From: a virus
Lineage: Duplodnaviria; Heunggongvirae; Uroviricota; Caudoviricetes
Virus record (IMG/VR): IMGVR_UViG_3300049049_000146
Span: 131,216-195,215 of that record
Length of the DNA: 64,000 nt
Direction: 5' to 3' (one strand)
Shown here: piece after piece, positions 29,305 through 45,762 of the stretch
Layout: every line of letters begins with the position of its first letter
Position numbering within the stretch: position 1 is the first letter of the stretch
Position numbers and translations under genes: made by a program
Notes under the pieces: model-generated
The model's input: the letters and a program-made list of their open reading frames with translations, nothing else
Databases searched by the model: none
What the model was told of the DNA's origin: nothing

Positions 29305-29343
29305 AAAACAAGAAAGGCCCGCCAGGTTTCCCTGACGAGCCTC
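29305..29343 (-). terminator. intrinsic terminator
   Basis: AGGCTCGTCAGG-GAAA-CCTGGCGGGCCT followed by TTCTTGTTTT. Confidence 0.75.
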
Positions 29344-29354
29344 TCTTTACCGAA

Positions 29355-30244: not shown

Positions 30245-30264
30245 TCGTATCTCCTCTTCTCGAA

Positions 30265-30588: not shown

Positions 30589-30607
30589 CAGTCAGCACCC
30601 CTCCCCG

Positions 30608-31414
30608 TTACGCCAGGAAATCGGTCGTCGTGGTCGTCTTCATGCCCTGCTTGGTCAGGTCACGGACGAATGCCTCACCGTACTGCTCGAAGCTACCCAC
30701 GTTGCTCGACGCGTCGGTCAGCAGGTGGATCTTCTCGACGTACTGAGGCTTCGAGAAGTTGCTGACGATATCACGGACGGTGTTCGCCAGGCAGTGCGAA
30801 AGCGCCTCGCCAGCGACGAGGATGACGTCCGCGTTCTCCAGCGTGTTGATGAACCGCGTGTTCACCTGCGTCGCGGGGTCCTCCGGGTCCGGAACCTCCG
30901 CCTTGACCGCCGAGAAGTGCTCGGTCCAGGGATTCGAGCCCTTGGTGACGAAATCGGCCAGAGCGTAGCGCTCCTCCCATGCGTGCACCGCCGCCGAGAA
31001 CTCCGGGAACACGTTGTGGCCCTCGTCGCCGATGAGGCAGTGGTACGGCCAGATCACGTGCGGGTAGCGGTTCGTCGCCTCCAGGGCTCGAAGGTACGAA
31101 AGCGAGCGCTTGTACGCGCCGGGCTGCGTCGTCGTCCAGGCTCCCGCCTCGACGTCCTTCGCGGTGATCATCGTGAACGGATTCGGGTGACGACCACTCG
31201 AATCCTTCCACCACATCGGGTGCGAGATGTCCACCTTGCGGTGCGAATCCAGCGTGATGTGAATGTCGTTCAGCTTGTTCTTGAGGCGATGAACCATCTT
31301 CGCCAGACGCTTCATGTCCTCCTCGGCGCCCTTCACGTAGAGCGAGCCGTTCGGATTGCAGAAGTCGTTCTGCGGGTCGATGACAACGAGTTCAATCTTA
31401 GCAGCCATTCTCAA
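30608..31414 (-). CDS. pncA: nicotinamidase / cysteine hydrolase (PncA)
   Basis: VIDPQNDFC..GSLYV.GA, TLDSH...ISH, WPYHC..G..G, KG, GEALSHCLANT (catalytic Cys). Confidence 0.85.
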   Translation of the reverse strand: MRMAAKIELVVIDPQNDFCNPNGSLYVKGAEEDMKRLAKMVHRLKNKLNDIHITLDSHRKVDISHPMWWKDSSGRHPNPFTMITAKDVEAGAWTTTQPGAYKRSLSYLRALEATNRYPHVIWPYHCLIGDEGHNVFPEFSAAVHAWEERYALADFVTKGSNPWTEHFSAVKAEVPDPEDPATQVNTRFINTLENADVILVAGEALSHCLANTVRDIVSNFSKPQYVEKIHLLTDASSNVGSFEQYGEAFVRDLTKQGMKTTTTTDFLA

Positions 31415-31905
31415 CCTTCCTTCATTCTGAGCCAGACACCTTCGTAGCTCACGATCTGTTTGACGAGCCTCGAACCCTGCACCTCGAAAGAGGGCACGTA
31501 CTCATTGCAGCCATACTCCTGAGGATCCTTGCCGAATCGAAGTGCACGCTCGTGCCACCGATTCAGGTACTCCTCAGGAGGGGCTTCGCTCAGGAACACG
31601 GCAACAGAATCGTATGCCGGGTATTCCCTACCATCCGCAGTAGTCCGCATGCGCCCAGGAGTCACCCAGATCGAAGCGGGGCGGAACGTCCCGTGGTCAT
31701 CGGGCTTCTGGACGACCGCCCGTTCGACGAATTCCTTCTCAGCGTCGTCTGCCTCATCCAGAAAGTAGTCGAGGCATTCGAAGCCGACAGAGCATTCACC
31801 GATCTGCCCGGTCATGAATGCAACGAGATTACGCTCGAAATTCCCTGCGTACTCACTCGTGTCGACGATGAAAATGAATTCGTCGGCGGGCGGCTTATAC
31901 ATCAC
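31411..31905 (-). CDS. hypothetical protein
   Basis: IVDTSEYAGNFERNLVAFMTG; tiling. Confidence 0.6.
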   Translation of the reverse strand: MMYKPPADEFIFIVDTSEYAGNFERNLVAFMTGQIGECSVGFECLDYFLDEADDAEKEFVERAVVQKPDDHGTFRPASIWVTPGRMRTTADGREYPAYDSVAVFLSEAPPEEYLNRWHERALRFGKDPQEYGCNEYVPSFEVQGSRLVKQIVSYEGVWLRMKEG

Positions 31906-32138
31906 GCACCATCAACGTCGTTGAGGTGAATCTCCGTGCTGCCAGCGGCGACGCGAACACCATCAGTGCCGACGTGGCGGACGTCGATGCGGTCGACACC
32001 GGACATGATCCGGATATCGCCTGCCGTCGACACGTGCACCTCGCAACGGCGTCCGTCACGTGCGCACCAACTGATGATGGCGATATCGCCCTTCTGATTC
32101 TTGTCGCGATTGATTTCCATGCTTCCCTTAAAGGACAC
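31902..32138 (-). CDS. hypothetical protein
   Basis: Tiling. Confidence 0.5.
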   Translation of the reverse strand: MSFKGSMEINRDKNQKGDIAIISWCARDGRRCEVHVSTAGDIRIMSGVDRIDVRHVGTDGVRVAAGSTEIHLNDVDGA

Positions 32139-33507
32139 GAAGAATGACGCGGTCCTTCTTCGTCTTTACATAGTTGTGGTCCGCGAACGCGCACTGGAGG
32201 TAGTGCGAATCGTGGGGCACAGCGCACTGCGTGAGGTACTTGCAATTGTTCATGCAAGCCTTGTGGTGCGGGTAAGCCGCCCCATCGAGCTTCGTCCAGA
32301 CGTACTGGAAGTCAGACTCGAAGATGCTGTGCTCCCGCTTGTACTTCAGCGCACGCTCAAGCGAGTCCTTGACGGAACTCGCAACGTGCTCCTCGATTTC
32401 CTCAGCGGAGAGATCGACGCGGTCCTTCCAATACGAACGCGTCTCCTCTACGATTTCCGCCTCCGACCGATTGTCCGGCTCGAACGGCTCGAAGGAGCTA
32501 TGCGAAACATAGCCCTTGTCGTCGACGTAACAGGAGAAGAGCCCTTCCTGACGTACGGCGTACCGCGTGTCAACGCCAGGGATCTTCATGCTGAGGAAAT
32601 AGGGCAGGAGCCCCTCCGAGAAGGCGAAACGAAATCCCGCCTTCTGCTGCGCCGACATGATTGCGTAGGGCAGGGCACTCTGGTACGTGTGCTTCGACAT
32701 CACGCCAGAGAATCCACCACGACCGACGGGGTAGTAAGCGAGAAGCACGATGTTCAGATCGCGCAGACCCACAGACGCTAGCTCGTCGAGCGACTGAGCC
32801 ACCCGGTCGTCGGCAATCACGTGCACGTTCATGAGGACGTGCTTTGCGAGCTTCGCCCGCCACGTATCGTAGACCTCACGGAAATACGCGGGGCCCTTGA
32901 ATGCATGGTACGTCAACGCAACGCCGCCACAATATTCGTTGGTCGCCTTGATGACGTCCTCCCGAACAATGTGGCCCGCGGTCGTGTAGTTCGGGACGGT
33001 GCCCTTCTCACGGGTGTAGGAAAGGAACCACGGGAAATCAGGGTGCGCGGTCGGCTCGCCGCCGCCGAACGCAATCTGATACGGCGCGTGCTTCAGCGTG
33101 AAGATGCGCTCCAGAAGTTCACGGGAAGCGTGCTTCCCCGCAGTCGTCGAAGACTGGTAGCAGTAGTCGCAGCCGAAATTGCACCAGTCCGTGATCTTCA
33201 CGTCCACGGTCTCGGGGCTCGGCGACCAAGCGAAATGACGACGAGCACCCCAGTGGACGTACTCGTCGTCACCCGCACCGCGAAGCTCACGGTCCCAACG
33301 CTTCTCGAACTCTTCCCACCCCTTGGCGTACTCCCGAATACCATGAAGCTTCATGGCAATCATTTCGGGAAGCGTGTCCAAGCCATAGCCGTGACGCCCC
33401 TTCTCAGGAACGTCGGTCACGCGGACCAGGGTCCCGCTCTTCGGGTCGAACGTCGACTGGTAGAATACGTACCCGTCGAATTCATTCTTCATCTGTCGCA
33501 TGTTCAA
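32128..33507 (-). CDS. radical SAM protein
   Basis: VKITDWCNFGCDYCYQ (CxxxCxxC), QIAFGGGEPT.HP, PNYTT.G, PVGRG. Confidence 0.9.
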   Translation of the reverse strand: MNMRQMKNEFDGYVFYQSTFDPKSGTLVRVTDVPEKGRHGYGLDTLPEMIAMKLHGIREYAKGWEEFEKRWDRELRGAGDDEYVHWGARRHFAWSPSPETVDVKITDWCNFGCDYCYQSSTTAGKHASRELLERIFTLKHAPYQIAFGGGEPTAHPDFPWFLSYTREKGTVPNYTTAGHIVREDVIKATNEYCGGVALTYHAFKGPAYFREVYDTWRAKLAKHVLMNVHVIADDRVAQSLDELASVGLRDLNIVLLAYYPVGRGGFSGVMSKHTYQSALPYAIMSAQQKAGFRFAFSEGLLPYFLSMKIPGVDTRYAVRQEGLFSCYVDDKGYVSHSSFEPFEPDNRSEAEIVEETRSYWKDRVDLSAEEIEEHVASSVKDSLERALKYKREHSIFESDFQYVWTKLDGAAYPHHKACMNNCKYLTQCAVPHDSHYLQCAFADHNYVKTKKDRVILRVL

Positions 33508-34013
33508 CCTGCAGGGCCATCGACGCCGCAGACACGATCACTGAGACCGAAATCGAAGCGGCACGAATAGCGGTAGCGCCCGTCCGTCGGGCAATCACTG
33601 TCATCCTCGCAGTGCGCCGTGCAGCCCGACACGGTGATGCAGATCGTGGAATCGCACTGCGGACCGGACGTGCAGCTATTGCCAACCTCGTAGCACTGAC
33701 CCATCCAGCAAGCGTGGCTCGCCGGACAATCCGCAGCGACGCTGCACCCGGCGTCGGTCGTCCCGGCGTCCGTGCCGGCGTCGACCATTTCAACCATTCC
33801 CGAATCGGTACCGGCATCCTCGGTACCCGAGTCCTGACCGCCATCCTCCTCGATCACCGCGTCAGGGACGTCCACCTGGGCGTCGTCCAGCGGCATCGCC
33901 GCGTCGTCCGTACCGCCATCAGCGGTCGTCAGGTCGGGCCCAAGGGCCGAGAGATCGTACATGCAGCCGACACAGAAGACGGCCACCAAAAGGCTTAGCC
34001 TCGTCATTTTCAC
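33504..34013 (-). CDS. myxobacterial-type lipoprotein with DAG repeats and Cys-rich domain
   Basis: Lipobox VGC; repeated DGG/DAG/DSG; C...ADC.....C..GQC repeats. Confidence 0.75.
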   Translation of the reverse strand: MKMTRLSLLVAVFCVGCMYDLSALGPDLTTADGGTDDAAMPLDDAQVDVPDAVIEEDGGQDSGTEDAGTDSGMVEMVDAGTDAGTTDAGCSVAADCPASHACWMGQCYEVGNSCTSGPQCDSTICITVSGCTAHCEDDSDCPTDGRYRYSCRFDFGLSDRVCGVDGPAG

Positions 34014-34765
34014 AGCCCTCCAAACTCGAAGGCGAAGGAGACACCGGCAGCGACTGCCAGAGCACTCGTGACACCGATCATCACGTTCGTTGCGAGAGAC
34101 AGCGAATCGACGTTGCTGATTTCACCAGGCGTGCATCCCGAAGGCGTCAGACCACAACCCGAAGCCAGCTGATGGTACTGTGCATCCGCAACAGCACCCA
34201 GCGAAATCGTGGTGACGAGGGAAAGAATCGTCGCGACACCAAAGGACGTCGTCCAGACGAACTGAAATCCCTGGGGAGGCGGCGGAGGAATTTCCTCGAC
34301 AGGCGGCTCCGGATCCGGCACGACCTCCGGCTCAGGCTCAGGAGCCACCTCGGGCTCCGGTTCCGGCTCGGGCTGCGTCTCGGGAGGCGGAGCCAGACTC
34401 TCCAGGAGCGACGTCATCGTTCCGATTCGCGTCTGGACATCGACGCGGTCATCGGAATTCGGAAGCTCACGGAGATAGCGACGGAAAGCAGCCACACCGC
34501 GGTGAAGATTATCGACATCGTGCGTCGTATCGTACGCTCGCTGGTAGCAGAGACCGATGTTGTACAGAAGCTCGGGAGCGAAGACGAGAGTGAAGCTTCG
34601 CTCGAAGTGCTGAGCGCAGTCGAGCCAGCGGCTCGTACGGAACGCCAGAGCGCCCTGCTCGTAGTGCAATCGAGCTTCCTCGATGCTCGCATCATCAGTC
34701 GCCTGCTGTGCCAGGGCTGTGCACGGCAGCAAGAACAGAACGAACACGAAAACTAGAGAACGCAT
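34010..34765 (-). CDS. myxobacterial-type TPR membrane protein
   Basis: Signal peptide; EEAR.HYEQG..AF; PELLYNIGLCY; A..AFRRYL; PE-rich linker; C-terminal TMs with GC...GC. Confidence 0.8.
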   Translation of the reverse strand: MRSLVFVFVLFLLPCTALAQQATDDASIEEARLHYEQGALAFRTSRWLDCAQHFERSFTLVFAPELLYNIGLCYQRAYDTTHDVDNLHRGVAAFRRYLRELPNSDDRVDVQTRIGTMTSLLESLAPPPETQPEPEPEPEVAPEPEPEVVPDPEPPVEEIPPPPPQGFQFVWTTSFGVATILSLVTTISLGAVADAQYHQLASGCGLTPSGCTPGEISNVDSLSLATNVMIGVTSALAVAAGVSFAFEFGGL

Positions 34766-34803
34766 AGGGACCTCCTGAGGCCACCCGGCCTCCTCATGAA
34801 CCC

Positions 34804-34820
34804 TAGCATCGTTGGACTTT
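34804..34820 (-). promoter_or_regulatory. class A promoter-like motif, copy 5
   Basis: AAAGTCCAACGATGCTA upstream of the TPR gene. Confidence 0.75.
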
Positions 34821-34830
34821 GCCCTATGTT

Positions 34831-35217
34831 TCAGCGCACACCGCGATGGTGTAAACACACCCACCCGTTACGGCCGCCTTGCACGAGAACAACAACGCCA
34901 CCTTCAACTTCGCACTCAGACTTTCGGATCTCGTCGAACAGAATCAGGCCGAAGAAAACGATGAGCGTCGCAATGAGCAAGAACATAGCCGAAGCAATCT
35001 TCGCCCGCTGCGTGCGGGAAGTGCTGTCGACCCCAATCTGCTCGATTGCACTGTCGATCTCAGCCTTCTCTGCTGAAGGTTGAGTCCACTTCTGCTTGGA
35101 TTCTCCGAGCGGGTGCACGACGCGCAGGGCGCGCTTACTTGCCTTGCGATACATTGGCGCTCCTAATTGCCGTCGAGGAAACCGCCAGCAGTTCAGCGCG
35201 GGTCTGCGGCACCGCAA
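34831..35217 (-). CDS. small membrane protein
   Basis: TM then ECEVEGGVVV....GWVC. Confidence 0.55.
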   Translation of the reverse strand: MRCRRPALNCWRFPRRQLGAPMYRKASKRALRVVHPLGESKQKWTQPSAEKAEIDSAIEQIGVDSTSRTQRAKIASAMFLLIATLIVFFGLILFDEIRKSECEVEGGVVVLVQGGRNGWVCLHHRGVR

Positions 35218-35725
35218 CGACGTTCACCGGCCTCACAGGAACCGACTGAAGGTCCTGAAGAACGCCCTTGTGAATTCGCGGCCAGACGTGAAACTTCGCG
35301 TCGAGAGCCTCGATACCATCAATACCGTAATTGTCGACGGCACGCTGGTACGTATCGATGCCCATGTGGAAGTGCAGCTGAGAAACGCAGCAGCGACGGA
35401 GGAGCTTGATTTTGTCGATGAATAAGCTCTCCTTCGTCACGATGACAGGAGCGTACCCACGGAACTGATCGAGGCGCTGGAAAATCTCGTCCTTCGTCAG
35501 ATCCTCCTTGTCGACACGCGACGCAGAGATTTCGAAGAACTTCGCGCTGCCCCAGCGATCGATCTGAATCGAATCGTAGATGTGACGGTGACCGTCGTGG
35601 AGTGGATTGAACGACCCGGGCACCACATGCAGGTCGAAGAACGCGGTGTCGTTCAGCGGGTGCAAATCGTACCCACCGACCCAAATTCCTGTATCAGACA
35701 AGGTAGCCTCCTTCGACAAGCTCAA
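35135..35725 (-). CDS. HxGH nucleotidyltransferase, NMN/NaMN adenylyltransferase-like (NadD/Pof1-like)
   Basis: PGSFNPLHDGH, FEIS...VDK, LFIDK, MGIDTYQR, VSSTAIR. Confidence 0.8.
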   Translation of the reverse strand: MSLSKEATLSDTGIWVGGYDLHPLNDTAFFDLHVVPGSFNPLHDGHRHIYDSIQIDRWGSAKFFEISASRVDKEDLTKDEIFQRLDQFRGYAPVIVTKESLFIDKIKLLRRCCVSQLHFHMGIDTYQRAVDNYGIDGIEALDAKFHVWPRIHKGVLQDLQSVPVRPVNVVAVPQTRAELLAVSSTAIRSANVSQGK

Positions 35726-36287
35726 GGCAGAGCTTACTAGGAATACCGGTGACCAGACTCAACGCAACCTCACTGACCATGCGGTCTTGAGCGAGGCGGT
35801 TGCGAAAAACATTCGGGGCCGTGTGCTCGTGCTCTTCGAGCTTGTCAAGACGAAGCTGCCACGCCTTGTCTGCCGTGGCGATCCATGCACGATTACCACC
35901 TCTGCGGTACCGAGCAGACGTGATTGCGCCGGTTACTGCCACCAGACTCACGTCGCGTCCAGCCGTGGCCTTCGACAAGGCACGGAGCATGAACTTGACA
36001 CGCTCAGGAGAAACGGCAGGAGCCATCTCCGCCTCGACGTAGGTGTCATGGTCCAGGTTTGCCTTGAGGAAGCGAAACATCGCCTCCTCTGAGTAAAGAA
36101 CCTGGATCTCGTCCACCACACGGCTCGCGCCTGGAGCAGAAATGAGGCTCGTGAACCATGCACCACAGCCGGTGATGACCGCGCTAATCTTCGGCCCCTT
36201 GTAATTCGCAACCACACGAGCGTGGCTGAAATCGTGAGGGTCGTTAGCGAGGTCAGCTAGGATCTCATCCTCGGTCATCGTCGTCAT
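35694..36287 (-). CDS. CinA C-terminal / PncC-like (NMN deamidase fold) protein
   Basis: ITGCG...LISAPGASR.....V.YS.EA...FL, AVSPE....M, VAVTG, RG.NRAWIA; adjacent to the NadD-like gene. Confidence 0.65.
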   Translation of the reverse strand: MTTMTEDEILADLANDPHDFSHARVVANYKGPKISAVITGCGAWFTSLISAPGASRVVDEIQVLYSEEAMFRFLKANLDHDTYVEAEMAPAVSPERVKFMLRALSKATAGRDVSLVAVTGAITSARYRRGGNRAWIATADKAWQLRLDKLEEHEHTAPNVFRNRLAQDRMVSEVALSLVTGIPSKLCLELVEGGYLV

Positions 36288-36657
36288 GGCTATTAGTATC
36301 GACGGACTTTTCAGGACGGGCCATATCCCACAGTGGGAAACCCGCGTCAGCGAACTGCTTCTGAAGCTCGTGGAACTTCTTTACCTGCTCACAGTGCTCA
36401 AGAGAGAAAGCTGAATGCCACAACCGAGCGTATTCAGACGCCATGCCCGCGAGCATAGTCGTCAGGAATTGAAGCTGTCGATGATCAAGCTTCATCGCTG
36501 CTTCCATCGCGGCGTTCGTCGCCTTCGCGTAGTTGCCTGCCTTCAGACCTTCACGGAAGTCGTTGAACGTGCTGTCCACCGCGTCCATGTCGATCGTCTC
36601 GGTCTCCCCGTCAGCGTTGCGCTGGATGAGGATCTTGTTCCCGGTCACGTTGAACAT
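36265..36657 (-). CDS. hypothetical protein
   Basis: Tiling. Confidence 0.6.
   Translation of the reverse strand: MFNVTGNKILIQRNADGETETIDMDAVDSTFNDFREGLKAGNYAKATNAAMEAAMKLDHRQLQFLTTMLAGMASEYARLWHSAFSLEHCEQVKKFHELQKQFADAGFPLWDMARPEKSVDTNSHDDDDRG
36294..36310 (-). promoter_or_regulatory. class A promoter-like motif, copy 6
   Basis: AAAGTCCGTCGATACTA, 6 nt before the ATG at 36287. Confidence 0.75.
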
Positions 36658-36658
36658 G

Positions 36659-37186
36659 TTACCGCCTCTTGTAGTGAGTCACAGTGAGGCCAGGCTGATA
36701 CGGATGCTTATCCGTGCTGGCGACCATGAAGCGAAGAAACGAAATCTCGGGAAAGCGCACTAACGTTCCGTCGTCCGGCACGTCATCAGGTACGTTCGTG
36801 AGCCAGATCTCGTCGGCGATCCTCATCGCCTCGGCGTACATCCGAGCGCCACCAATAACCCACGCCGTGTCGTAGAACGCGCCGGGGGTGCTGGTGGTCA
36901 TATTGTACCCGCGGGCGGCTTTCAGGGCCTCGTCGAGGGTGCGTACGGCGCACACGGTCTTGTAGTTCTCGGGCTTGGACGTAACGACGATCGGGTATCG
37001 ATACGGAAGCGGGCTCTTGATCGACTCCCAGGTATTTCGCCCCATGATGATGGGCGAATACATCGTCTTCTCCTTGAAGAACTTCAGATCTCCAGGATAG
37101 CGCCAGGGCAGATCGTTCCCCTTACCGATCACCCTATTACGGCCGACAGCCGCGATCAGCTTAACGGTTAGAGGGTTGCTAAACAT
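36659..37186 (-). CDS. folA: dihydrofolate reductase
   Basis: LIAAVGRNRVIGKGNDLPWRYPGDLKFFKEKT, IMGRNTWES, WVIGGARMY. Confidence 0.93.
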   Translation of the reverse strand: MFSNPLTVKLIAAVGRNRVIGKGNDLPWRYPGDLKFFKEKTMYSPIIMGRNTWESIKSPLPYRYPIVVTSKPENYKTVCAVRTLDEALKAARGYNMTTSTPGAFYDTAWVIGGARMYAEAMRIADEIWLTNVPDDVPDDGTLVRFPEISFLRFMVASTDKHPYQPGLTVTHYKRR

Positions 37187-37541
37187 CGGTCTTCGTCGCC
37201 GCATGAATGAGGTCGAGCATCTTCTGCGCGTCCTCACGAGCTTTCTGAAGAGTCTCGGGAGGAATTGTTGCAGCGTGCCCCAGCGCGAAACCACGCTGGC
37301 TCAGAATCATGAGCGTAATGTGATTCAGCACGTTCTGCTCAAGGAACGCCACCTTGTGGCGAAGATCCTCATGCGCAAGCCGAAGAGACTCATGGCTGTC
37401 GCAAAGGCCACGCACTTCCCAGTAATCCCACGTCTTCTTCCCACGCAGGCGGCTGACGTAGTCCCGTCCGTACGTGCGATCGATCGGGATGATCGTGAAC
37501 GTCGAATATCTGCTCTTCTCGTCGTCGATTCCGTTGCCCAT
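37179..37541 (-). CDS. hypothetical protein
   Basis: Tiling. Confidence 0.55.
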   Translation of the reverse strand: MGNGIDDEKSRYSTFTIIPIDRTYGRDYVSRLRGKKTWDYWEVRGLCDSHESLRLAHEDLRHKVAFLEQNVLNHITLMILSQRGFALGHAATIPPETLQKAREDAQKMLDLIHAATKTDV

Positions 37542-38156
37542 TCAATCCATGCCCTTCGTGCGCTGAGTCATTGCCTCGCCCCATTCCTGCATCCTCTTCG
37601 CGACTTCATCGATCTCTTCGTCGGAAAGAGTTCTCACCTGCGAGGGTTTGCTGGCGAGGACGGGTTTCTTCAGGTCTTCCTGCTCTTCGCGTATGCGCGC
37701 TCGTCCTTTGGCGTACGATTCCCAGCGCGCAGTCTCGTGGTCGAATTGCACGCCAAGGTGCGCCCGCTGCACAGCGGAGACAAGAAGCTGAATCTCCTGA
37801 TTCACAGCGCGGTCGTTACGATGCTCCGCGTCACGTACGATGAAAACGCGGGCACCACGTACCTCCGCAAGTCCGTAACCGGGCGGAAGGTCATCAACCT
37901 TGAGCAAGCCAGGAGGCGTCAAGTACCACCTAAACTGCCCCATCGATTGCCCCGCCCTCACGTGAATCTTCCCACGGTCACGGTGAAAGTCGGAGCGAGA
38001 TACCTTCACTTCCACTACATGTGAATTGAAACGGTACCACCCAATCACATCAGGCGTCTCGTGAAGAGCAGTTGTCATCTCCGCGAAAACGACAGAACAA
38101 GAATGCCGGCTGCGGAGCCAACGCACAGCGCGGTCAACGAGATCCTTGTGGTTCAT
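37542..38156 (-). CDS. PD-(D/E)xK nuclease-like protein (MmcB-related)
   Basis: PDVIG...VVEVKVSRSDF.RD..K, WYLTPPGLL....LP.GYGL. Confidence 0.75.
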   Translation of the reverse strand: MNHKDLVDRAVRWLRSRHSCSVVFAEMTTALHETPDVIGWYRFNSHVVEVKVSRSDFHRDRGKIHVRAGQSMGQFRWYLTPPGLLKVDDLPPGYGLAEVRGARVFIVRDAEHRNDRAVNQEIQLLVSAVQRAHLGVQFDHETARWESYAKGRARIREEQEDLKKPVLASKPSQVRTLSDEEIDEVAKRMQEWGEAMTQRTKGMD

Positions 38157-39052
38157 ACCGCGACGTCAGCCTTGATTGCCGGGTGAGGATCGTACCCCAC
38201 CAGCTTGAAATCCTTGTGCGTCAGGTTCTCGATGAATTCATCGATCGTGCAGGTAAGCTGACCAGGATCAAACGGCACCGCAATCTCAAGCCGCGGTGCG
38301 GGGCGCAATGGTCGCATGATCTGCTCGATGGCTGGCTTCATGTGATTCGAATAGAGGTGGACAGACGCCCCGAAGAACACAAGCATTCCCGGCTCGTATC
38401 CAGTCAGGCGGGCCATGATGTGCGTCAACGTCGCGTAACTCGCGATGTTAAATGGCAGCCCAAGGAACACGTCGCAGCTGCGCATGTTGAAGAGCGCATC
38501 GATGTAGGTCTTTCCATCAACCTCACGGGTCGAGAACTGGAAAGAATAGTGGCAAGGCGGCAGCGCCACGTCGGCAACATGTGCGGGGTCCCACGCGTTC
38601 ACAAGAATGCGACGAGACATGCGGTTGTGCCGAAGGAGTTCGAGAGCAGCCGAAATCTGGTCAGTCCCGTCCTTACGAGGAGAGCCGTACAAGCCACCAA
38701 AGTTGCGCCAATTGTGGCCGTACACAGGCCCTAAATCGCCCTCTGGTCGGCCGTACTTGTCGCACTGTTCCTTGGTAGCCCACTCGTCCCAGATGGTCAC
38801 GCCACGAGCCTGAAGATCCTTCACGTTCGTCGAGCCACGGAGCATCCAAAGCAACTCCTCGACGACTCCCTTGAAGAAAACCTTCTTCGTGGTGAGAAGC
38901 GGGAATCCCTTCTGAAGGTCAACCTTGATCATCTGACCCCAGGTGTCGTAAGTACCGACCCCCGTACGGTCCTTCTTCTCCACGCCGAAGTTCAAGCAAG
39001 AACGAACGACGTCGATGTACTGCGTCTCCCAGGTCTCAAAATCATCACTCAT
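38153..39052 (-). CDS. thyA: thymidylate synthase
   Basis: DRTGVGT, FPLLTTKKV, ELLWMLRG, IWDEW, LGPVYG, ALPPCH, RSCDVFLGLPFNIASY, HLYSNH; no intron seen. Confidence 0.95.
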   Translation of the reverse strand: MSDDFETWETQYIDVVRSCLNFGVEKKDRTGVGTYDTWGQMIKVDLQKGFPLLTTKKVFFKGVVEELLWMLRGSTNVKDLQARGVTIWDEWATKEQCDKYGRPEGDLGPVYGHNWRNFGGLYGSPRKDGTDQISAALELLRHNRMSRRILVNAWDPAHVADVALPPCHYSFQFSTREVDGKTYIDALFNMRSCDVFLGLPFNIASYATLTHIMARLTGYEPGMLVFFGASVHLYSNHMKPAIEQIMRPLRPAPRLEIAVPFDPGQLTCTIDEFIENLTHKDFKLVGYDPHPAIKADVAV

Positions 39053-39711
39053 TGCATTCCTCTTACTTGGCTGAGTCGGGGCTCGGCAACACCAGTACCG
39101 TACACCCACGTGAAAACGTCTAGAGTCGTTCCGGGAAGTTGGCAGACCCTGATCCCGTACGACCCAAGCTCTACACCGTTCCCCATGATGTCCCACCCTT
39201 CACGAGTGGACACAACCTCAAGATTCTCGACAGGGATATACTTCAAGAAGAAGTCCCGCGCCTTCCGAATCACACGCCGCAAACGATCGTTAAGGAACGC
39301 TTCAGAAGCTTCAAGGTGGTACGGCTCGAACAACTCCACCTTCATGAATTGCTTCTGATGGACTTGGTCAATGGCGTCATCCCGGAAACAGGGCGAGATT
39401 GCCACGTACGATCGCGGAGTGCTCTCCGTCCCAAGGCCCAGAATACCTCGCAGGGTCACGTGCAGGAATGACTGCTCAGCAGATCCCACAAGCGCGTTCT
39501 GAAAGTTGCGGCCGTCCTCAATCACCCCGTACGGGGCCCTGGTTGCCGGCAGCGTGATAGCGACGACATTCGTCGGTACAGCCCAAGGAACCTCTACGTA
39601 TTCGAAGCCTTCGCTCGTATACCATTCGAGCGCGGCCGAGAGCGTGCTCCAGTCAATCGGATGAAGCGGGGCATTCGCGAGCGGATTACGCTTAACCGCG
39701 CGTTCCGTCAC
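39049..39711 (-). CDS. class II aminoacyl-tRNA synthetase-like minimal catalytic core (SerRS-like)
   Basis: Motif 1 GFEYVEVPW; SAEQ (TxE-like); motif 2 SPCFRDD...HQKQFMKVEL; ELGSY; motif 3 YGTGVAEPR; no N-terminal coiled-coil arm. Confidence 0.78.
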   Translation of the reverse strand: MTERAVKRNPLANAPLHPIDWSTLSAALEWYTSEGFEYVEVPWAVPTNVVAITLPATRAPYGVIEDGRNFQNALVGSAEQSFLHVTLRGILGLGTESTPRSYVAISPCFRDDAIDQVHQKQFMKVELFEPYHLEASEAFLNDRLRRVIRKARDFFLKYIPVENLEVVSTREGWDIMGNGVELGSYGIRVCQLPGTTLDVFTWVYGTGVAEPRLSQVRGMQ

Positions 39712-39937
39712 GGAACGCCTCCTTGGTAAGGTCGCTCATCTTCTTGAGGTCCTCCATCGAAACTCCGTACTTCAGCTGAGCGCAGTGCTCAAGCGCGCCG
39801 TACAGGTCTGCAAGTTCGCAAAGCGCGAGAATCGTAACTCCCTGCTGCTCGGCGTCCTCAAGCTCTTCAAGTTCCTCGCGAATCTTGGACGATTGCCCGA
39901 GCACGCCTTTTGGGATCTGTCGAGTGTGGTAACCCAT
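39692..39937 (-). CDS. MazG-like / all-alpha NTP pyrophosphohydrolase-like protein
   Basis: KIREELEELEDA...CELADLYGALE. Confidence 0.65.
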   Translation of the reverse strand: MGYHTRQIPKGVLGQSSKIREELEELEDAEQQGVTILALCELADLYGALEHCAQLKYGVSMEDLKKMSDLTKEAFRDGTRG

Positions 39938-39943
39938 GATTCC

Positions 39944-40243
39944 TCACTTGTGGTCGGAAGTACAGTCTTTACGGTTGCAGTAGACACAAACGCCGTTGAT
40001 CTGGTCCTCCCAGAACGAAGGCATCACGGACTTCATGTGCCTACTAATTGCCTTGAACTGCTCGTTGACCTCTAGTGCCTCGGCAACTCCGGCGTCGTAC
40101 CCCTGCTGGTAGACATTCTCCAACACATCGGCGAGCATGTTGATCCACTGCTCTGTGCGCTGGTCGTTGCCTGTGTGGCAGACGTGCTCGAATTCCTCTA
40201 GGTAGGCGCGTGCAATTTGCACGAAGTGTTCACGCGTGACCAT
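39944..40243 (-). CDS. hypothetical protein
   Basis: Tiling. Confidence 0.55.
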   Translation of the reverse strand: MVTREHFVQIARAYLEEFEHVCHTGNDQRTEQWINMLADVLENVYQQGYDAGVAEALEVNEQFKAISRHMKSVMPSFWEDQINGVCVYCNRKDCTSDHK

Positions 40244-40745
40244 TGTCCTTCATCTCCTTGACGGCTGCGACCTTCTTCTTGAGCATCGCAACGACTGCCG
40301 GAACGACGACATTCGAGATGTCCGCGCCGCCCTCCAGAAGCTGCTTCACCTGACTGCTGCTCAGGTCGGAAAGGGAGGGGTCCGCAGGAAGGAAAACGGT
40401 CTGGATCTCGGGAGCGAGCTTCTTGTTTTCCTCAGCAAGCTTCAGTTCGTAGGCAGCATCAGTGACGTTGCGGATTCCACGGATGAGCACGGACGCACCG
40501 ATCTCCTGGGCGTAGCGCACCACGTACCCGTCAGTGCTATCGACGGTAACGTTCGGCATCCCTGCAAGGGAGACATTTGCCGAAGTAATGCGCTCGGTCT
40601 CCGAGAATAGCGTCTTCTTGTTCGGATTCGTCGCGACCAGTACACGGACGTGCGAGTACATGCGAGCGCCGATCTTCACGATCGACTTGTGGCCCAGCGT
40701 AAACGGATCGAACGTACCAGCATAGATCGCGATCGACATAGTCAA
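40230..40745 (-). CDS. coaD: phosphopantetheine adenylyltransferase
   Basis: AIYAGTFDPFTLGH, NPNKKTLFS..ER, IRGIRNVTD..YE..LA..N..L...IQTVFL, LSSSQVK. Confidence 0.9.
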   Translation of the reverse strand: MTMSIAIYAGTFDPFTLGHKSIVKIGARMYSHVRVLVATNPNKKTLFSETERITSANVSLAGMPNVTVDSTDGYVVRYAQEIGASVLIRGIRNVTDAAYELKLAEENKKLAPEIQTVFLPADPSLSDLSSSQVKQLLEGGADISNVVVPAVVAMLKKKVAAVKEMKDNGHA

Positions 40746-40975
40746 CTCCTTACATCAAAGAATGAGTCCTGGATGGACTTCAACATCTCAGTCGCTTCTT
40801 CGTCGGAGAAACCGGCCAGAAGCTTCTTGAGTCTCGCGTTCACCTGACGCGTAGAGAATCCCTGCTGCCGCAAACGGTGGCGAAGAAACTCAACCTCGCT
40901 TGGTTCGAGCTTCTCCCTTCCGGTCAGCATCTCGACAAACATCAGCGCTACAAGATGGCGCGTGTCGTGATTCAT
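40742..40975 (-). CDS. hypothetical protein
   Basis: ATGA tiling. Confidence 0.55.
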   Translation of the reverse strand: MNHDTRHLVALMFVEMLTGREKLEPSEVEFLRHRLRQQGFSTRQVNARLKKLLAGFSDEEATEMLKSIQDSFFDVRS

Positions 40976-40992
40976 TTAGCCCTGAAAAGGTT

Positions 40993-41020
40993 GAGGCCCC
41001 GAGATTTCTCTAGGGGCCTC
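40993..41020. terminator. hairpin terminator
   Basis: GAGGCCCC...GGGGCCTC with T tracts nearby on both strands. Confidence 0.6.
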
Positions 41021-41038
41021 TTCCTTTTACAGTTGCTG

Positions 41039-41437
41039 TCACTCAGCGGCGTCAGGTTCGTCCTTCTTGTCACCACCAAGAGGGTCAAGCCAGTGCGTCG
41101 TTGCGGCAAGCTCCTTCAAGACTTCGAATAGATTCTGGAACTGCTTGTCTGCTTCGAGCGTCGACCCCTCAGGTGGGCTGAAGTGATTGTTCGGCAGGTG
41201 CAGGACCTTCGCGAGGTAATCGATCTCCTCGTGCAGGCTCACGTCGTCAAAGACGCGCATGTCAGGGACAGACTTCTGGACACGATTCGCGAGTTGGCGA
41301 GCTTTCTTGGCGAGGCGCTTACGAGCGTTGCGGTACTGTTCGAATTCTTCATAGATCTGCGATGCCTCCCGTTTGATAGTTTCGATCTCATGTACCCGAC
41401 GGAGTCGGGACGCCTTGATCGGAGCACGGCTACCCAT
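41039..41437 (-). CDS. hypothetical protein
   Basis: ORF track. Confidence 0.6.
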   Translation of the reverse strand: MGSRAPIKASRLRRVHEIETIKREASQIYEEFEQYRNARKRLAKKARQLANRVQKSVPDMRVFDDVSLHEEIDYLAKVLHLPNNHFSPPEGSTLEADKQFQNLFEVLKELAATTHWLDPLGGDKKDEPDAAE

Positions 41438-41479
41438 GCTACTAAAATAACGGGTGCGAAACCTATAGCGAATTCGCCG

Positions 41480-41971
41480 CTACTGTTTTCGGAGGAAATG
41501 CCAGTACGCGTCGTCACCGAGCAGCTGGTCGAGTTCGTCGTCCGACAAGTTCACGATCTTGTAGTCTTCCATCACACCAGGGAGACGAGGTACAAGCGTC
41601 GGAGCGAAGCGGTAAATCCGACGTCGGTGCCCACCTACAGTGCGCGCCCAAGCATACTCAGCGTTCAAGCCAGAAGTGAGTAGCAGAGCGCGATCAATCT
41701 TCCAGAAGATGCTGGTCTTCGTTTCGTCGACAATGACGTAACGATATCGTTTCTCTCTGATGTCTCGGATGTCTGGCAGCGCAGGAAGGCCCCGAGCAAC
41801 GGCTTCGGCCTTAGCCGCCTTCATCGCCGACTTAGCGGTAACACCGTGAGCCTCACAATTTGCCCTAGCACTCGCGATAGCGCAGCGAACCGAGCAAGGG
41901 TTCGACCCGTCCGTAAACCTCGAAGAGAATCCACAGACAGGGCACGTGGGCACTGCGCGTGGGGAAGGCAC
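41480..41971 (-). CDS. hypothetical protein with N-terminal CxxC...CxxxC
   Basis: ORF track. Confidence 0.55.
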   Translation of the reverse strand: MPSPRAVPTCPVCGFSSRFTDGSNPCSVRCAIASARANCEAHGVTAKSAMKAAKAEAVARGLPALPDIRDIREKRYRYVIVDETKTSIFWKIDRALLLTSGLNAEYAWARTVGGHRRRIYRFAPTLVPRLPGVMEDYKIVNLSDDELDQLLGDDAYWHFLRKQ

Positions 41972-42123
41972 GTCAGGCGCTCCCTCCGGGGGTCTCCGGG
42001 TGCAGCTTGATTTTTCGGCAGGTGTATCGCCAGTACATCGCCTGCGTGAAACGCGCGACGACCGTGACCGGGAAGATTGCCATGTGAAACAAGAAACGCA
42101 TCATGTCTCGATCCTAATATAAC

Positions 42124-42564
42124 TCAGTTGTGTCCATCGGCTTTCGCGTCGCGAAGCATGAGTATGTGCGCGTCAGCGAGAGCATTCTGCACTTCGCGAG
42201 GAAGCGGGGCAGGCGGAGGAAGCAACTGAGAAAGCTGGTCGTCAAGCAGGCGAAGGAGCGTTAACTCCTTCTCGGTCAGTGCCTCTCCACGAATCTTTCT
42301 GAAATGGAGCGCATCCCGAACCTCGCCGTAACGGTCCATCCATTCCTGGAGTTCCGTACGCTTGTCCTTACGCTTCGGGGCCCGGATGATGTCACGAGAC
42401 ACCCGGAGCGTGTCAAGGATATACGTCTCTGCCTCTACCGTCCTGGCCGTGAAGTGCTCGCGCATTTCCTTGACGGTGTAGACCTTGTCAGCTGTGCGCC
42501 AAAGAGGCGAGTCGTCAGGAAGGTCGGACAGAAACTCAGTGAAGACTGCGAATAAGTCGTTCAT
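42124..42564 (-). CDS. hypothetical protein
   Basis: ORF track. Confidence 0.6.
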   Translation of the reverse strand: MNDLFAVFTEFLSDLPDDSPLWRTADKVYTVKEMREHFTARTVEAETYILDTLRVSRDIIRAPKRKDKRTELQEWMDRYGEVRDALHFRKIRGEALTEKELTLLRLLDDQLSQLLPPPAPLPREVQNALADAHILMLRDAKADGHN

Positions 42565-42580
42565 TGCCAGAATCTCGAAG

Positions 42581-42661
42581 TAGGGACGGAGGGACTCGAA
42601 CCCTCAAAGGTGCGGGGTTTAAATCCGCTGGCTGTGCCTTTCGCCGTTAACCCACGTCCCC
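42581..42661 (-). tRNA. tRNA-Leu(TAA), atypical: short variable loop, enlarged D-loop
   Basis: GGGGACG/CGTCCCT acceptor, A73, loop TTTAAAC, T-arm GAGGG-TTCGAGT-CCCTC. Confidence 0.75.
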
Positions 42662-42665
42662 GTAA

Positions 42666-42971
42666 TTACTGCTTCGCCTTCTCTCGCTTCACAATGACGT
42701 ACGTTCCAAGCCAGGAACCAATCGCCAATGGGATTAGATAAAGCGGATTGTTGACGTAACTCATCACACCCAGCGCCGACAGGAAGTACATCGACGCTGC
42801 GGTATTGGCCGCCTTTACCGGGTTCAACTTCGTAACGTACAGCGTATACAAGGCGTACAGAGCATCCAGAATGATGTACAGAAACATCACCCCGACAGCA
42901 ATGTCAAACCGGAAGGTGGACAACCAAGTCTCTACGAGAGTCCCCATCGCTCCATCAGCACTTTCTGCCAC
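42666..42971 (-). CDS. small multi-TM membrane protein
   Basis: Three hydrophobic segments ending GSWLGTY. Confidence 0.7.
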   Translation of the reverse strand: MAESADGAMGTLVETWLSTFRFDIAVGVMFLYIILDALYALYTLYVTKLNPVKAANTAASMYFLSALGVMSYVNNPLYLIPLAIGSWLGTYVIVKREKAKQ

Positions 42972-43324
42972 AAGCGCTGCGTTTCAGTCTTCGATGGTGG
43001 AACCAACAGCTGAATTACATCGCTCGGCGTAAGCGGGAATTTGAAGCGAATCACGCCGCGGCTTTGCTCTTCACGGTCCAAGGACGTCGAGCAGTCGTAC
43101 TGCAGCCCTGGGCCGTGGATTAAAAGGCTATTCCCCAGCAAGACCTGGATCTCGTCGGAACTACAATGGCTGTAGTCCAGACCCAGTCCTACCGGGGAAT
43201 GCGCGGGGATAGGCTTTACGACAGTGACGGCGACCCGATGCGCAGTGTAGAGCGTAGCCGGGTAGTAATGGACCAACTTGAGTCCATCATACAGGCTGCG
43301 AATACGCTCGGGCACGCCGTCCAT
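42932..43324 (-). CDS. hypothetical protein
   Basis: Tiling. Confidence 0.5.
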   Translation of the reverse strand: MDGVPERIRSLYDGLKLVHYYPATLYTAHRVAVTVVKPIPAHSPVGLGLDYSHCSSDEIQVLLGNSLLIHGPGLQYDCSTSLDREEQSRGVIRFKFPLTPSDVIQLLVPPSKTETQRLWQKVLMERWGLS

Positions 43325-43345
43325 GTCTCTTAGATTAGCTGAGGC

Positions 43346-43534
43346 TCAGCGGAAATCAAACCCACGGAGCGTCGAACGCTCCTTCTTCGCCAGAGACATG
43401 CGGAGCTTTCGCACCGAAGTCTTCCGCGCCGTCGGACGGCAATCACCACCCCAGGGAGGGAGAGCCCCGAATCGAGTCTCGTGCTCGATTGCCTCAGGCA
43501 CGTCCTCATCGTTCTTTTTCTTCTTGTCGCTCAT
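43346..43534 (-). CDS. hypothetical protein
   Basis: ATGA-coupled to pncB. Confidence 0.5.
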   Translation of the reverse strand: MSDKKKKNDEDVPEAIEHETRFGALPPWGGDCRPTARKTSVRKLRMSLAKKERSTLRGFDFR

Positions 43535-44877
43535 ACGCTGTTCTCGATGTCGGATGCGGCTTCGCGAAGATAGTAACTGACGTTCTGAGCGTAGCTCTTG
43601 AACTCAGAAACCCTCTTTACAGCATGCGAGCGGGTATCCTGAAGAGAAGTTCGGTCGATGCTGGGCCTCGGAAGACGATCGCTCATGATCGTGTAGGTCT
43701 TCCCGCTGTTCCTGTACTCGTGAGCGATCGGGTCTCGCTCCGTGTAGTGAAAGAGCGTGTCGGTGACCTTGCCGTCCTCCACGCGCCGAACGACGACCTT
43801 CTCGCCCGGCAAATTCGACTTGCCTCCCTGCTGCACCTTCATCACGGGACGCGAGGGGGCGTTGTCTTCGCCGAATACCTCGACGATCTTGTAGACGAAT
43901 CCGGGGCTGTGGTGCGACGCGACCACCTTCGTGCCCACGCCATACCCGTCGACCGGAACATTCTTCTGCGTGTACAGACGAATCGTCTGCTCGTCCATCT
44001 CGTTCGAGACGAAGATTTTCGTCTCCGAGAATCCCATGATGTCCAGTTGACGCCGGGCAGCGAACACCGTATTCGCGTCCCCGGAATCGATCCGGATAGC
44101 GGACAGCGGAATCCGAAGCTCAAGCGAAGCACGCATCGCATTCGCGACACCCTGCTCGATGTTGTAGGTATCGACGAGGAGCGTGTGCTTCTCGGGGAAC
44201 GCTTGGATGAAATCCTTGAAGGCGTGAAGCTCGCCCTTGACGCCGTCGCCGTAGCTGAGGACGTAGGCGTGAGCCATCGTGCCGGAGATCGGAATTCCGT
44301 AACGACGACCCGCTTCGACGTTCGAAGTAGCGTCGAAGCCACCGATGTACGCCGCGAGAGCGGCATGCACAGCGGCCTCGGGGTCAAGACGTCGCGACCC
44401 GAACTCGATCAGCGTCTTGCGGGGAACCTCGCGACGAATACGCGAAGCAACCGTCGCAACTCGACACATGTGATTCAGCATTCCGCAGATCGGCGTCTCG
44501 ATGAGCTTCACGAGAGCGGCGGGGCCGCGAACCTGCACGGCGGGCACGTTCGGAAGCAGAAGCTCACCGTCCGGAACGACGTGAATATCGAGGTCCGAAA
44601 GACGTGCGTCGTTCCGCAGCCACACCAGGAAGTCAGTGTCAACAATGCGGAAAGCATCCGAAATGTAGTCGACCTCTTCCTTCGTGAAGAGCTTGTCCTG
44701 GTGCCTCGCCACGAAATCGTGGATGGGATTGAACCCGCCCATCAGGATGTAGTTCCACCCCTCAGGGAGCTTCCGGAAAAAGGCTTCCGCAGTAACCTTC
44801 CGGTTGATGTTCCCAGACTTCCAGTGCGCATAGGCCATGGAAATCTGGTACGCATCCGTGTGCAGCGCGCCAATCAT
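43531..44877 (-). CDS. pncB: nicotinate phosphoribosyltransferase
   Basis: LHTDAYQISM, EAFFRKLP, IETP, EFGSRR, GFDATSNV, GTMAH, LVDTY, IRIDSGD, YGVGT, VYK (NAPRTase-type, not NadV SEHS-type). Confidence 0.92.
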   Translation of the reverse strand: MIGALHTDAYQISMAYAHWKSGNINRKVTAEAFFRKLPEGWNYILMGGFNPIHDFVARHQDKLFTKEEVDYISDAFRIVDTDFLVWLRNDARLSDLDIHVVPDGELLLPNVPAVQVRGPAALVKLIETPICGMLNHMCRVATVASRIRREVPRKTLIEFGSRRLDPEAAVHAALAAYIGGFDATSNVEAGRRYGIPISGTMAHAYVLSYGDGVKGELHAFKDFIQAFPEKHTLLVDTYNIEQGVANAMRASLELRIPLSAIRIDSGDANTVFAARRQLDIMGFSETKIFVSNEMDEQTIRLYTQKNVPVDGYGVGTKVVASHHSPGFVYKIVEVFGEDNAPSRPVMKVQQGGKSNLPGEKVVVRRVEDGKVTDTLFHYTERDPIAHEYRNSGKTYTIMSDRLPRPSIDRTSLQDTRSHAVKRVSEFKSYAQNVSYYLREAASDIENSV

Positions 44878-44886
44878 GATGACCTC

Positions 44887-45762
44887 TCAGAAGAACGAAC
44901 GAACCGAATCACGCGACGGGCCCGGAGGGGGCGACGCCTTGTGACGCGAAACACGCTCAGCGTGGTAGGTCTTCTCGATGACCTCCAGCTGGCGCTTCGT
45001 GAACGCCGTGTACCGATCAGCGAATACGGCGAACGAGCCGCATTCCTCACGAGCCGCGAGGACGTTCGACGAATCGTTCAGTTGGGTCACCCACTCGATT
45101 TCCTGGTAGGTGATTCCAAGCTCGCCTTCGTCGGTCTGGCCTGCATCGGGGCCCCAGAGATCGGCCGTGGGGACCGCCTTCACGATCGACTGAGGCACGC
45201 CGAGGTAATCCGAAAGTGCCCAGACCTCGCTCTTGTGGAGGCACACGATCGGGTTGTTGTCGACGGCTCCGTCTCCGCGCTTCTGGTAATATCTGAAAAG
45301 CGCGTCCTCGTCGCGATTGCCGGTGCCGTACACCAGGCCGCTGTGCTTCTTGCCGAAGTAATCGAGAACAGGGGCGCGGAGACAGCTGCGAAGAGCGCCC
45401 TCCTCCGCCCGCTGCTGACTCACACCGGCGAACCTTCCGTTGCCCCACTGCTGCGCGGCCTGCCCGACGATCGACTTGAACGCGTCCTGAAGGTCGATCT
45501 CGTACTCGATGAACTTGAAGCCCTTCGAGCGCATCGCCTCGAAAAGCTCATTCGCACGATCGATCGAATCGCGGCTCGATCCGCAGGGCATCTTTACGCC
45601 TACGGTCAGCGGGAGAGCACGAACGCAGAGCGCAAAGACGAGTGCGCTGTCGACGCCGCCGCTGATTCCAACGACGCCATGCGGGAGGCCAGACGCCTTC
45701 GCCTGGTCCTGAATCCAGCCGACCAGGTGCTGTGTAAGACCCTCGTAATCCTTGATTTCCAT
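44887..45762 (-). CDS. nadE: NH3-dependent NAD+ synthetase
   Basis: VVGISGGVDSA, GTGNRDE, Y.K.GDG..D..PI..LHKSEV..L..YLGVP..I....PTADLW...QTDE.ELG.TY. Confidence 0.93.
   Translation of the reverse strand: MEIKDYEGLTQHLVGWIQDQAKASGLPHGVVGISGGVDSALVFALCVRALPLTVGVKMPCGSSRDSIDRANELFEAMRSKGFKFIEYEIDLQDAFKSIVGQAAQQWGNGRFAGVSQQRAEEGALRSCLRAPVLDYFGKKHSGLVYGTGNRDEDALFRYYQKRGDGAVDNNPIVCLHKSEVWALSDYLGVPQSIVKAVPTADLWGPDAGQTDEGELGITYQEIEWVTQLNDSSNVLAAREECGSFAVFADRYTAFTKRQLEVIEKTYHAERVSRHKASPPPGPSRDSVRSFF

Follow-up and report, generated by a model that had tools for sequence, protein, structure and literature searches.

A dispersed and conserved set of NAD+ salvage genes in a jumbo phage genome, with a plausible deamidated route from nicotinamide to NAD+

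Depletion of nicotinamide adenine dinucleotide (NAD+) represents a common antiphage strategy of bacteria, and the three phage routes for its restoration that have been shown experimentally, NARP1, NARP2 and NARP3, are all amidated. The present analysis concerns five phage genes that may provide a deamidated (Preiss-Handler) counterpart, with products resembling a nicotinamidase (PncA), a nicotinate phosphoribosyltransferase (PncB), an NAD synthetase (NadE), a mononucleotide adenylyltransferase and a CinA-fold protein. They are located in a 64,000-nucleotide stretch, hereafter the window, which corresponds to bases 131216-195215 of IMG/VR virus record IMGVR_UViG_3300049049_000146 (guanine plus cytosine content ∼57%, with most genes on the minus strand). 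The record is a single virus genome of 423,825 bp with direct terminal repeats, rated 100% complete, of a jumbo phage whose sole source is metagenomes. A DNA search of its nadE-pncB region against GenBank phages gave no match.

NARP1 consists of Adps and Namat, and NARP2 of Nampt and Nmnat, represented by NadV and NatV in Vibrio phage KVP40; both had been described in the original prediction for this locus as they are in the literature. NARP3 combines a PnuC-like transporter with a NadR-like enzyme (PMC13464706). What is on record for the deamidated route comes from annotation and one bioinformatic survey. All genes for a salvage or Preiss-Handler pathway were reported in 2024 for 174 of 668 gut jumbo phages, and a pncB-nadD-nadE cluster was named in jumbo phage Kuafu_71, a “NAD-jumbo phage” (PMC11662467). 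In GenBank, the annotation of Bacillus phage G places within 7 kb genes for one Nudix and one isochorismatase hydrolase, for a nicotinate phosphoribosyltransferase and a nicotinate-nucleotide adenylyltransferase, and for an NAD synthetase (NAD cluster gp275/gp277/gp281/gp283). The Osterman preprint on NARP1 and NARP2 mentions neither nicotinate nor NadE nor PncA, a systematic survey of viral NAD systems names NadV, NadM and NadR only (PMC9503650), and a late-2026 review covers NARP1 and NARP2 under its heading on NAD+ reconstitution, with no mention of a deamidated route. The suggestion that the present locus encodes a new, third route does not stand up to this record: NARP3 already exists, Preiss-Handler jumbo phages were published in 2024 and the phage G cluster is annotated. 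A deamidated phage route is not a new concept. What is new here is the combination of a non-canonical transferase with a dead CinA-fold domain, and the apparent exchange, within one phage clade, of a NAMPT-type enzyme for PncA, PncB and NadE.

We consider it plausible, with a probability of roughly 60%, that this phage and at least two relatives carry a dispersed, conserved NAD-salvage set that leads from nicotinamide to NAD+ by a deamidated route. Such a route would be distinct from both NARP1 and NARP2, as had been proposed. With NARP1 it may share the purpose of rebuilding NAD+ from the products of NADases; however, the complete genome has no match to the Prs/Adps family (PF13793; control hits in 14 of 14 genomes) and no Namat/NAMPT-type gene, its sole NAPRTase-family gene (PF04095) being of PncB type, and ADP-ribose would not be reused. 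The absence of Prs/Adps first noted for the window thus holds for the whole genome. The likeness to NARP2 lies in the start from nicotinamide and phosphoribosyl pyrophosphate (PRPP), in the adenylylation of a mononucleotide as the last step, and in the transferase/CinA-like pair, whose relatives stand directly beside NAMPT, as an Nmnat would. Here, in contrast, there is no NAMPT in the complete genome and only a candidate Nmnat, which is not of the NatV/NadM type and has no fused Nudix domain, and the route is deamidated and needs NadE. NARP3 is likewise a restoration of phage NAD+ outside NARP1 and NARP2, but that route is amidated and requires nicotinamide riboside to be imported, whereas no match to PnuC (PF04973) was found in the genome, and no NadR-type enzyme in family scans of the window or in a genome-wide PF01467 search. 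Since NAMPT, Prs/Adps and PnuC are all absent, the deamidated set would be the sole NAD route of this phage.

All five open reading frames are present exactly where they had been predicted, all on the minus strand. They are dispersed over about 15 kb, inside a region of cofactor and nucleotide metabolism with genes for CoaD, ThyA, DHFR, a radical SAM protein and a SpoT-like hydrolase as neighbours. Two related phage contigs of 81 kb and 150 kb retain the gene order of the window, namely nadE-pncB, coaD, thyA, the CinA-like/transferase pair, the radical SAM gene, and the PncA-like, vWA-like and PP2C genes; of the two, only the 150-kb contig had a detectable DHFR gene ahead of the pair. Measured against these contigs, the five NAD genes are under purifying selection, with ratios of nonsynonymous to synonymous substitution rates (dN/dS) of 0.05-0.13: 0.125 for NadE, 0.10-0.12 for PncB and 0.07-0.09 for the CinA-like gene, which is thus not decaying.

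Family assignments were graded by curated hidden Markov model (HMM) cut-offs (Pfam, NCBIfam/TIGR), and at this level of sequence families those of PncB and NadE are secure. NadE (44887-45762, minus strand), the first gene of the nadE-pncB pair, encodes a protein of 291 aa with the PP-loop SGGVDS that matches PF02540 (NAD_synthase; E 3.5e-37) and TIGR00552 (131.5 bits, cut-off 63.65). It belongs to the single-domain family and lacks a glutaminase domain, in agreement with the NH3-dependent type that had been predicted for this neighbour of pncB. The gap of 9 nt between the end of nadE and the start of pncB (43531-44877, minus strand) marks the two as an operon-like pair. PncB is a nicotinate phosphoribosyltransferase of the NAPRTase type, as opposed to the NadV type, again as predicted: it exceeds the cut-off of the NAPRTase equivalog TIGR01513 (341 bits, cut-off 297.4), matches PF17767 (NAPRTase_N; E 4.4e-20) and, unlike the enzymes found with relatives of the transferase, has no match to the NAMPT_N and NF006629 models. 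The best match of NadE in the PDB is 3FIU (98 bits), the Francisella NadE/NMN synthetase, NMN being nicotinamide mononucleotide (PMC12143786), followed by 2e18 (86.7 bits) and 3p52 (85.6 bits), and its top NCBIfam models are NAD+ synthase families. Judged by these matches, its substrate may be either nicotinate adenine dinucleotide (NaAD), as for an NAD synthetase, or nicotinate mononucleotide (NaMN), as for an NMN synthetase. NadE homologues are also present in cyanophages, pelagiphages and several megaphages.

The gene at 30608-31414 (minus strand) encodes a PncA-like cysteine hydrolase of the nicotinamidase type, 266-268 aa long. The earlier assignment as PncA was borne out by catalytic triad, metal site and fold; the curated models fall short of it, with scores below the cut-offs of both PF00857 (26.6 bits against 27) and NF008623 (33 bits against 174). 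The triad D11/K156/C206 and the metal ligands D54/H56/H123 are invariant in 20 homologues, with the motifs TLDSH and WPYHC. D11, K156 and C206 align with D8, K122 and C167 of yeast Pnc1, and the metal site with the Pnc1 motifs “DWH” and “WPVHC”; residues of Mycobacterium tuberculosis PncA also correspond. A family profile searched against the PDB found yeast Pnc1 first (E 4e-7), then mostly nicotinamidases, including M. tuberculosis PncA. With the AlphaFold2 (AF2) model (predicted local distance difference test, pLDDT, 77), the first five Foldseek hits all belonged to Acinetobacter baumannii PncA or yeast Pnc1, with E values between 6e-11 and 1e-9. On the grounds of the invariant triad and metal site, the profile matches and the nearest folds, we accept the product as a predicted nicotinamidase-type enzyme.

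This hydrolase has 3359 homologues at E < 1e-5, on phage-sized as well as bacterial contigs, and the best 120 of them share 66-80% identity with it. It heads a conserved arrangement, at window positions 23611-31414 (minus strand), in which it is followed first by a vWA-like product (about 245 aa) and then by a kinase-like one (about 561 aa). The same order recurs in two other settings, an unrelated phage contig of 485 kb and a bacterial chromosome of 6.9 Mb (core at L025:8001-12513 and L026:8001-15250). Identity to the window proteins is 71-73% for the hydrolase, 48-51% for the vWA-like and 35-47% for the kinase-like protein, the hydrolase being far better conserved than its partners. Phage copies of the module have a PP2C gene nearby, and just adjacent to the bacterial copy lies an NrtR-type gene (Nudix + WHD_NrtR). 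NrtR regulators control NAD genes. Whatever the purpose of the module, the product of the predicted enzyme would be nicotinate, which PncB could use.

The third enzyme, ADENYLYLTRANSFERASE (35135-35725, minus strand), is an HxGH nucleotidyltransferase with a NadD/NMNAT/Pof1-like fold and a candidate NMN and/or NaMN adenylyltransferase. Its start is likely at 35701, as in the database homologue P0004, which gives an overlap of 8 nt with the CinA-like gene. The scores for PF01467 (16.7 bits, cut-off 21) and NF000843 (16.5 bits, cut-off 240) are below both cut-offs, and single-sequence searches of the PDB with this protein and with the CinA-like protein yielded nothing useful, so that family profiles were needed. 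Across 12 homologues, the motifs GSFNPLHDGH and SSTxIR (SSTAIR here) do not vary. Searched against the PDB, the family profile matches Staphylococcus aureus NadD best (2h29, E 5e-6), with both halves covered, whereas pantetheine-phosphate adenylyltransferases (PPATs) are matched over the N-terminal motif part alone. Structure comparison with the AF2 model (pLDDT 82; predicted template modelling score, pTM, 0.82) points the same way: all of the top 50 Foldseek matches in the PDB are NaMN/NMN adenylyltransferases, at template modelling (TM) scores of about 0.6, and the top 30 among Swiss-Prot models are NadD entries together with a putative NMNAT of Schizosaccharomyces pombe, which has the highest query TM (0.68). 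We take this S. pombe entry to be of the Pof1 type. Yeast Pof1 is NMN-specific (PMC13191266). By motifs, profile and modelled fold, the 35135 protein is thus classed as a NadD/NMNAT/Pof1-like adenylyltransferase, nearer to NadD/NMNAT than to PPAT/GCT folds, and the identity first proposed for it holds although it stays under the Pfam cut-off. In the whole genome only two genes match PF01467 (CTP_transf_like). Since the other encodes CoaD, the 35135 gene is the sole genome candidate for the adenylylation step. CoaD, a pantetheine-phosphate adenylyltransferase at 40230-40745 (minus strand) that had been overlooked at first, is kept in both related phage contigs; it was considered as a NadD and rejected on its score of 156 bits against the TIGR01510 cut-off of 103. 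Together with a CoaE-like kinase encoded elsewhere in the genome, it may provide the last two steps of coenzyme A synthesis.

Next to the adenylyltransferase gene lies that of a CinA/PncC-fold protein without the catalytic Ser/Lys dyad (35694-36287, minus strand). Its PF02464 match (E 0.0016) is under the cut-off, but its family profile finds CinA proteins only in the PDB (Agrobacterium tumefaciens CinA, AtCinA, 2a9s, E 5.6e-4), and its Atlas model aligns with CinA proteins, and with bacterial CinA-like+CTP_transf_like fusions, at TM scores of 0.63-0.70. The fold that had been proposed is therefore confirmed, whereas the catalytic apparatus is absent. PncC needs the dyad, as AtCinA mutants S31A and K63A are inactive (PMC5384747). 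In the HMM alignment, K63 is opposite M70, a position with Met, Leu, Cys, Ser or Thr across nine family members, and S31 is opposite I38 or V37, where the family has hydrophobic residues throughout. S55 and Y65, which correspond to the phosphate-binding S48 and Y58, do not vary. The family shares its fold and these two residues with the PncC/CinA C-terminal domain, but has S31/K63 replaced by hydrophobic or other residues and the TGxAGP loop by an Arg-rich RYRRGDNRA motif. Because the dyad is absent, a role as NMN deamidase is unlikely, and so is the proposal that a PncC would feed NMN into the pathway as NaMN. From its residues, the protein is probably a mononucleotide-binding or regulatory subunit.

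In almost every phage relative examined the two genes lie side by side or are fused, and fusion is seen in 54 of 80 bacterial loci, where the fused proteins have about 380-400 aa (the loci concerned are L033-L112 in bacteria and, for phage fusions, L013, L014, L015, L016 and L018). The pairing of the two proteins is deduced from this adjacency and fusion; a complex prediction for them scored 0.00, gave no verdict and was not used either way. Among bacteria, the family is present in the genomes of at least 203 species, which belong for the most part to Chloroflexota, Planctomycetota, Gammaproteobacteria and Trueperaceae. Six other phage contigs have a gene for a NAMPT-type phosphoribosyltransferase immediately next to the pair or a few kb away at most; its product matches NF006629, in two of them with a NAMPT_N domain, and this proximity ties the transferase to pyridine mononucleotide adenylylation. 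In one case, a 149-kb phage, the NAMPT beside the fused protein (L016:6659-9139) is 826 aa long and matches the model in two separated stretches, which suggests that some sequence, perhaps an intein, has been inserted or that a further domain is present.

In the route envisaged here, nicotinamide would be converted to nicotinate by the PncA-like hydrolase, as its intact catalytic and metal residues suggest, and nicotinate and PRPP to NaMN by PncB, in keeping with its family assignment. NadE and the Pof1/NadD-like adenylyltransferase would then lead from NaMN to NAD+, either through NaAD in the classical Preiss-Handler order, which requires a transferase accepting NaMN, or through NMN in the order of Francisella, which requires a NadE amidating NaMN. 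The dyad-less CinA-fold partner would work with the adenylyltransferase, more likely binding the mononucleotide than deamidating it. PRPP and ATP would be supplied by the host, whose NadD could also supply the adenylylation step. The likely benefit would be that NAD+ is kept available in infection, including after SIR2/TIR-type NADases have released nicotinamide, although we infer such a counter-defence purpose and no more than that. Of the deamidated pathway put forward in the original prediction, then, a real and conserved gene set that could carry nicotinamide to NAD+ is retained, and the PncC step is lost. The published jumbo-phage Preiss-Handler sets resemble the present one in their nicotinamidase-like hydrolase, NAPRTase, NH3-type NAD synthetase and adenylyltransferase, in the nearby Nudix genes and in the giant phage setting. 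They are, however, tightly clustered, whereas the genes here extend over 15 kb with the PncA-like one in a vWA-like/kinase-like module; and the transferase here is not a canonical NadD but a Pof1/NMNAT-like protein obligately paired with the dyad-less CinA-fold protein.

Several observations weigh against the assembly of these genes into a single deamidated pathway dedicated to NAD+ recovery. The PncA-like, adenylyltransferase and CinA-like proteins are all under every curated HMM cut-off. Among eight IMG/VR relatives of the adenylyltransferase, including two records that are 98-99% complete, NadE was found in none and NAMPT in five. With its NAMPT neighbours and no NadE in relatives, the transferase family resembles an Nmnat serving a NAMPT route of the NARP2 kind, with NMN probably as its native substrate; by this analogy, use of NaMN by the 35135 enzyme is predicted at most, and NMN may be preferred. 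In the 80 bacterial loci, the surroundings of the fusion, out to 8 kb, contain no NAD genes. Bacteria with the fusion have a canonical NadD in 9 of 10 genomes and a canonical CinA in 31 of 40, and a NadV-type NAMPT in 2-3 of 40; judging from these co-occurrence counts, the fusion replaces none of NadD, NAMPT and CinA, and missing-gene tests in these bacteria did not discriminate its substrate. There might be two NAD modules: one in which nadE-pncB, possibly together with the nicotinamidase, strengthens the Preiss-Handler pathway by way of the essential NadD of the host, and another in which the CinA-like/transferase pair is an NMN-specific recycler (NMN to NAD+). Such a division would accord with the operonic association of the transferase family with NAMPT in NadE-less phages, with the S. 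pombe protein as best query-TM match and the NMN specificity of yeast Pof1, and with the 8 kb of unrelated genes between the pair and nadE-pncB. We nevertheless hold it to be rather unlikely: a transferase restricted to NMN would have to draw on the NMN of the host, since the clade has no NAMPT, NadR or PnuC for making it, many NMNATs take both substrates, and the co-retention of the five genes in three related phages fits a single pathway equally well. An order as in Francisella tularensis, with NadE as an NMN synthetase (NaMN to NMN) and the Pof1-like enzyme and its NMN-binding CinA-fold subunit forming NAD+ with no NaAD, appears less probable still. The small margin of 3FIU over ordinary short NAD synthetases and the best NCBIfam models, which are NAD+ synthase families, speak against it, even if 3FIU is the top match and the transferase family appears NMN-linked. 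In Francisella, too, NaMN comes from a phosphoribosyltransferase, the NadE is short and single-domain (FtNadE being the closest to that of the phage), and the loss of NadD for an NMN-using transferase accompanies NadE as NMN synthetase (PMC3376133); the transferase that replaces NadD there is, however, NadM, whereas that of the phage is Pof1/NadD-like.

The position of the hydrolase gene is a further difficulty, as it lies 12 kb from nadE-pncB with no conserved link to that pair. Because its conserved neighbours are non-NAD genes, it may serve the vWA-like/kinase-like module instead, in bacteria as well. The 30608 protein could then be the enzymatic head of a signalling or conflict module, with PP2C added in phages, and process nicotinamide, or some related amide, to serve the ends of that module. 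We find this doubtful. The recurrence of the three-gene order in such distant genomes and the unusually high identity among so many homologues argue for it, yet the nicotinamidase residues are fully intact, nicotinate would feed PncB regardless, and the NrtR-type gene beside the bacterial copy hints at a link to NAD. A stronger contender, to which we give somewhat less than even odds, is that the genes supply a very large phage with cofactors in general, raising NAD+ for its own needs regardless of NADase immunity, and are not a counter-defence. Neighbours such as CoaD, ThyA and DHFR suggest general metabolic support in place of a dedicated anti-defence island, the radical SAM enzyme and SpoT-like hydrolase complete such a setting, and NARP2 raises NAD+ without a defence system too. 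Against this stand the input of the route, nicotinamide, which is a NADase product, and the Nudix, NADAR and ADP-ribosyl glycohydrolase genes, which point to conflicts over ADP-ribose. The genome, moreover, contains neither an NAD-dependent ligase nor a macro domain; a need of the phage for NAD+ for a ligase of its own was rejected for want of such a gene.

Genome-wide, three Nudix genes, one NADAR gene and one ADP-ribosyl glycohydrolase gene were counted. A Nudix gene (168 aa) is clustered with the NADAR gene and an R2K-type ATP-grasp gene at window 13093-15001 (minus strand); the NADAR protein (E 9e-37) also matches the models of a riboflavin-intermediate N-glycosidase and of an anti-phage NADAR. 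NADAR genes have been reported near phage NAD salvage genes (PMC9503650). A stand-alone Nudix protein of 137 aa (window 1539-1952, minus strand) has its best, though weak, matches in the Nudix half of the bifunctional NadM NMNAT/Nudix, an NAD+ diphosphatase and the ADP-ribose-responsive repressor NtrR, with a likewise weak resemblance to NrtR, and may be an ADP-ribose or NAD pyrophosphatase. The ADP-ribosylglycohydrolase family gene lies far outside the window (genome 391223-392092, minus strand; E 5e-35), and in phage contig L007 (166 kb) a homologous family is encoded directly upstream of the CinA-like/transferase pair.

Other genes of the region, all on the minus strand of the window, include one at 39049-39711 for a 220-aa protein with weak matches to class II aminoacyl-tRNA synthetase cores (SerS/PheS-like, E ∼1e-3 to 1e-4); a similarly short annotated tRNA synthetase (∼230 aa) adjoins the NAD cluster of Bacillus phage G. 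The radical SAM protein (459 aa, 32128-33507), kept in related phages, has an Fe-S oxidoreductase as its best PHROG and the prokaryotic viperin model as its top NCBIfam match (E 8e-11, far under the cut-off). A stand-alone SpoT/RelA hydrolase-domain protein without synthetase domain is encoded at 46620-47207, and at 47289-47876 an HNH endonuclease whose HNH domain is similar to those of IscB and Cas9d. For a 74-aa open reading frame at 6679-6903, a proposed Tad2/DUF2829 likeness found no support: neither Pfam nor NCBIfam gave a match at E ≤ 0.001.

The locus shows a strongly conserved nicotinamidase-like enzyme heading a vWA-like/kinase-like module, and draws attention to a family of uncharacterised adenylyltransferases, partnered by a dead CinA-fold domain, that may be an unrecognised Nmnat. 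If NAD+ were indeed restored by the deamidated route after attack by SIR2/TIR proteins, this would be a fourth counter-measure of phages beside NARP1-3. It is tempting to go further, although the odds are low, and to envisage a hybrid route new for any virus, in which PncA and PncB make NaMN, a Francisella-like NadE converts it to NMN, and an Nmnat of a new type, a Pof1-like transferase with a catalytically dead NMN-binding CinA-fold subunit, completes NAD+. Were this so, the clade would have swapped the NAMPT that stands beside the same pair elsewhere for a deamidating front end, possibly to escape a host measure directed against NAMPT or nicotinamide, and the result would be a fourth pathway of NAD+ reconstitution.

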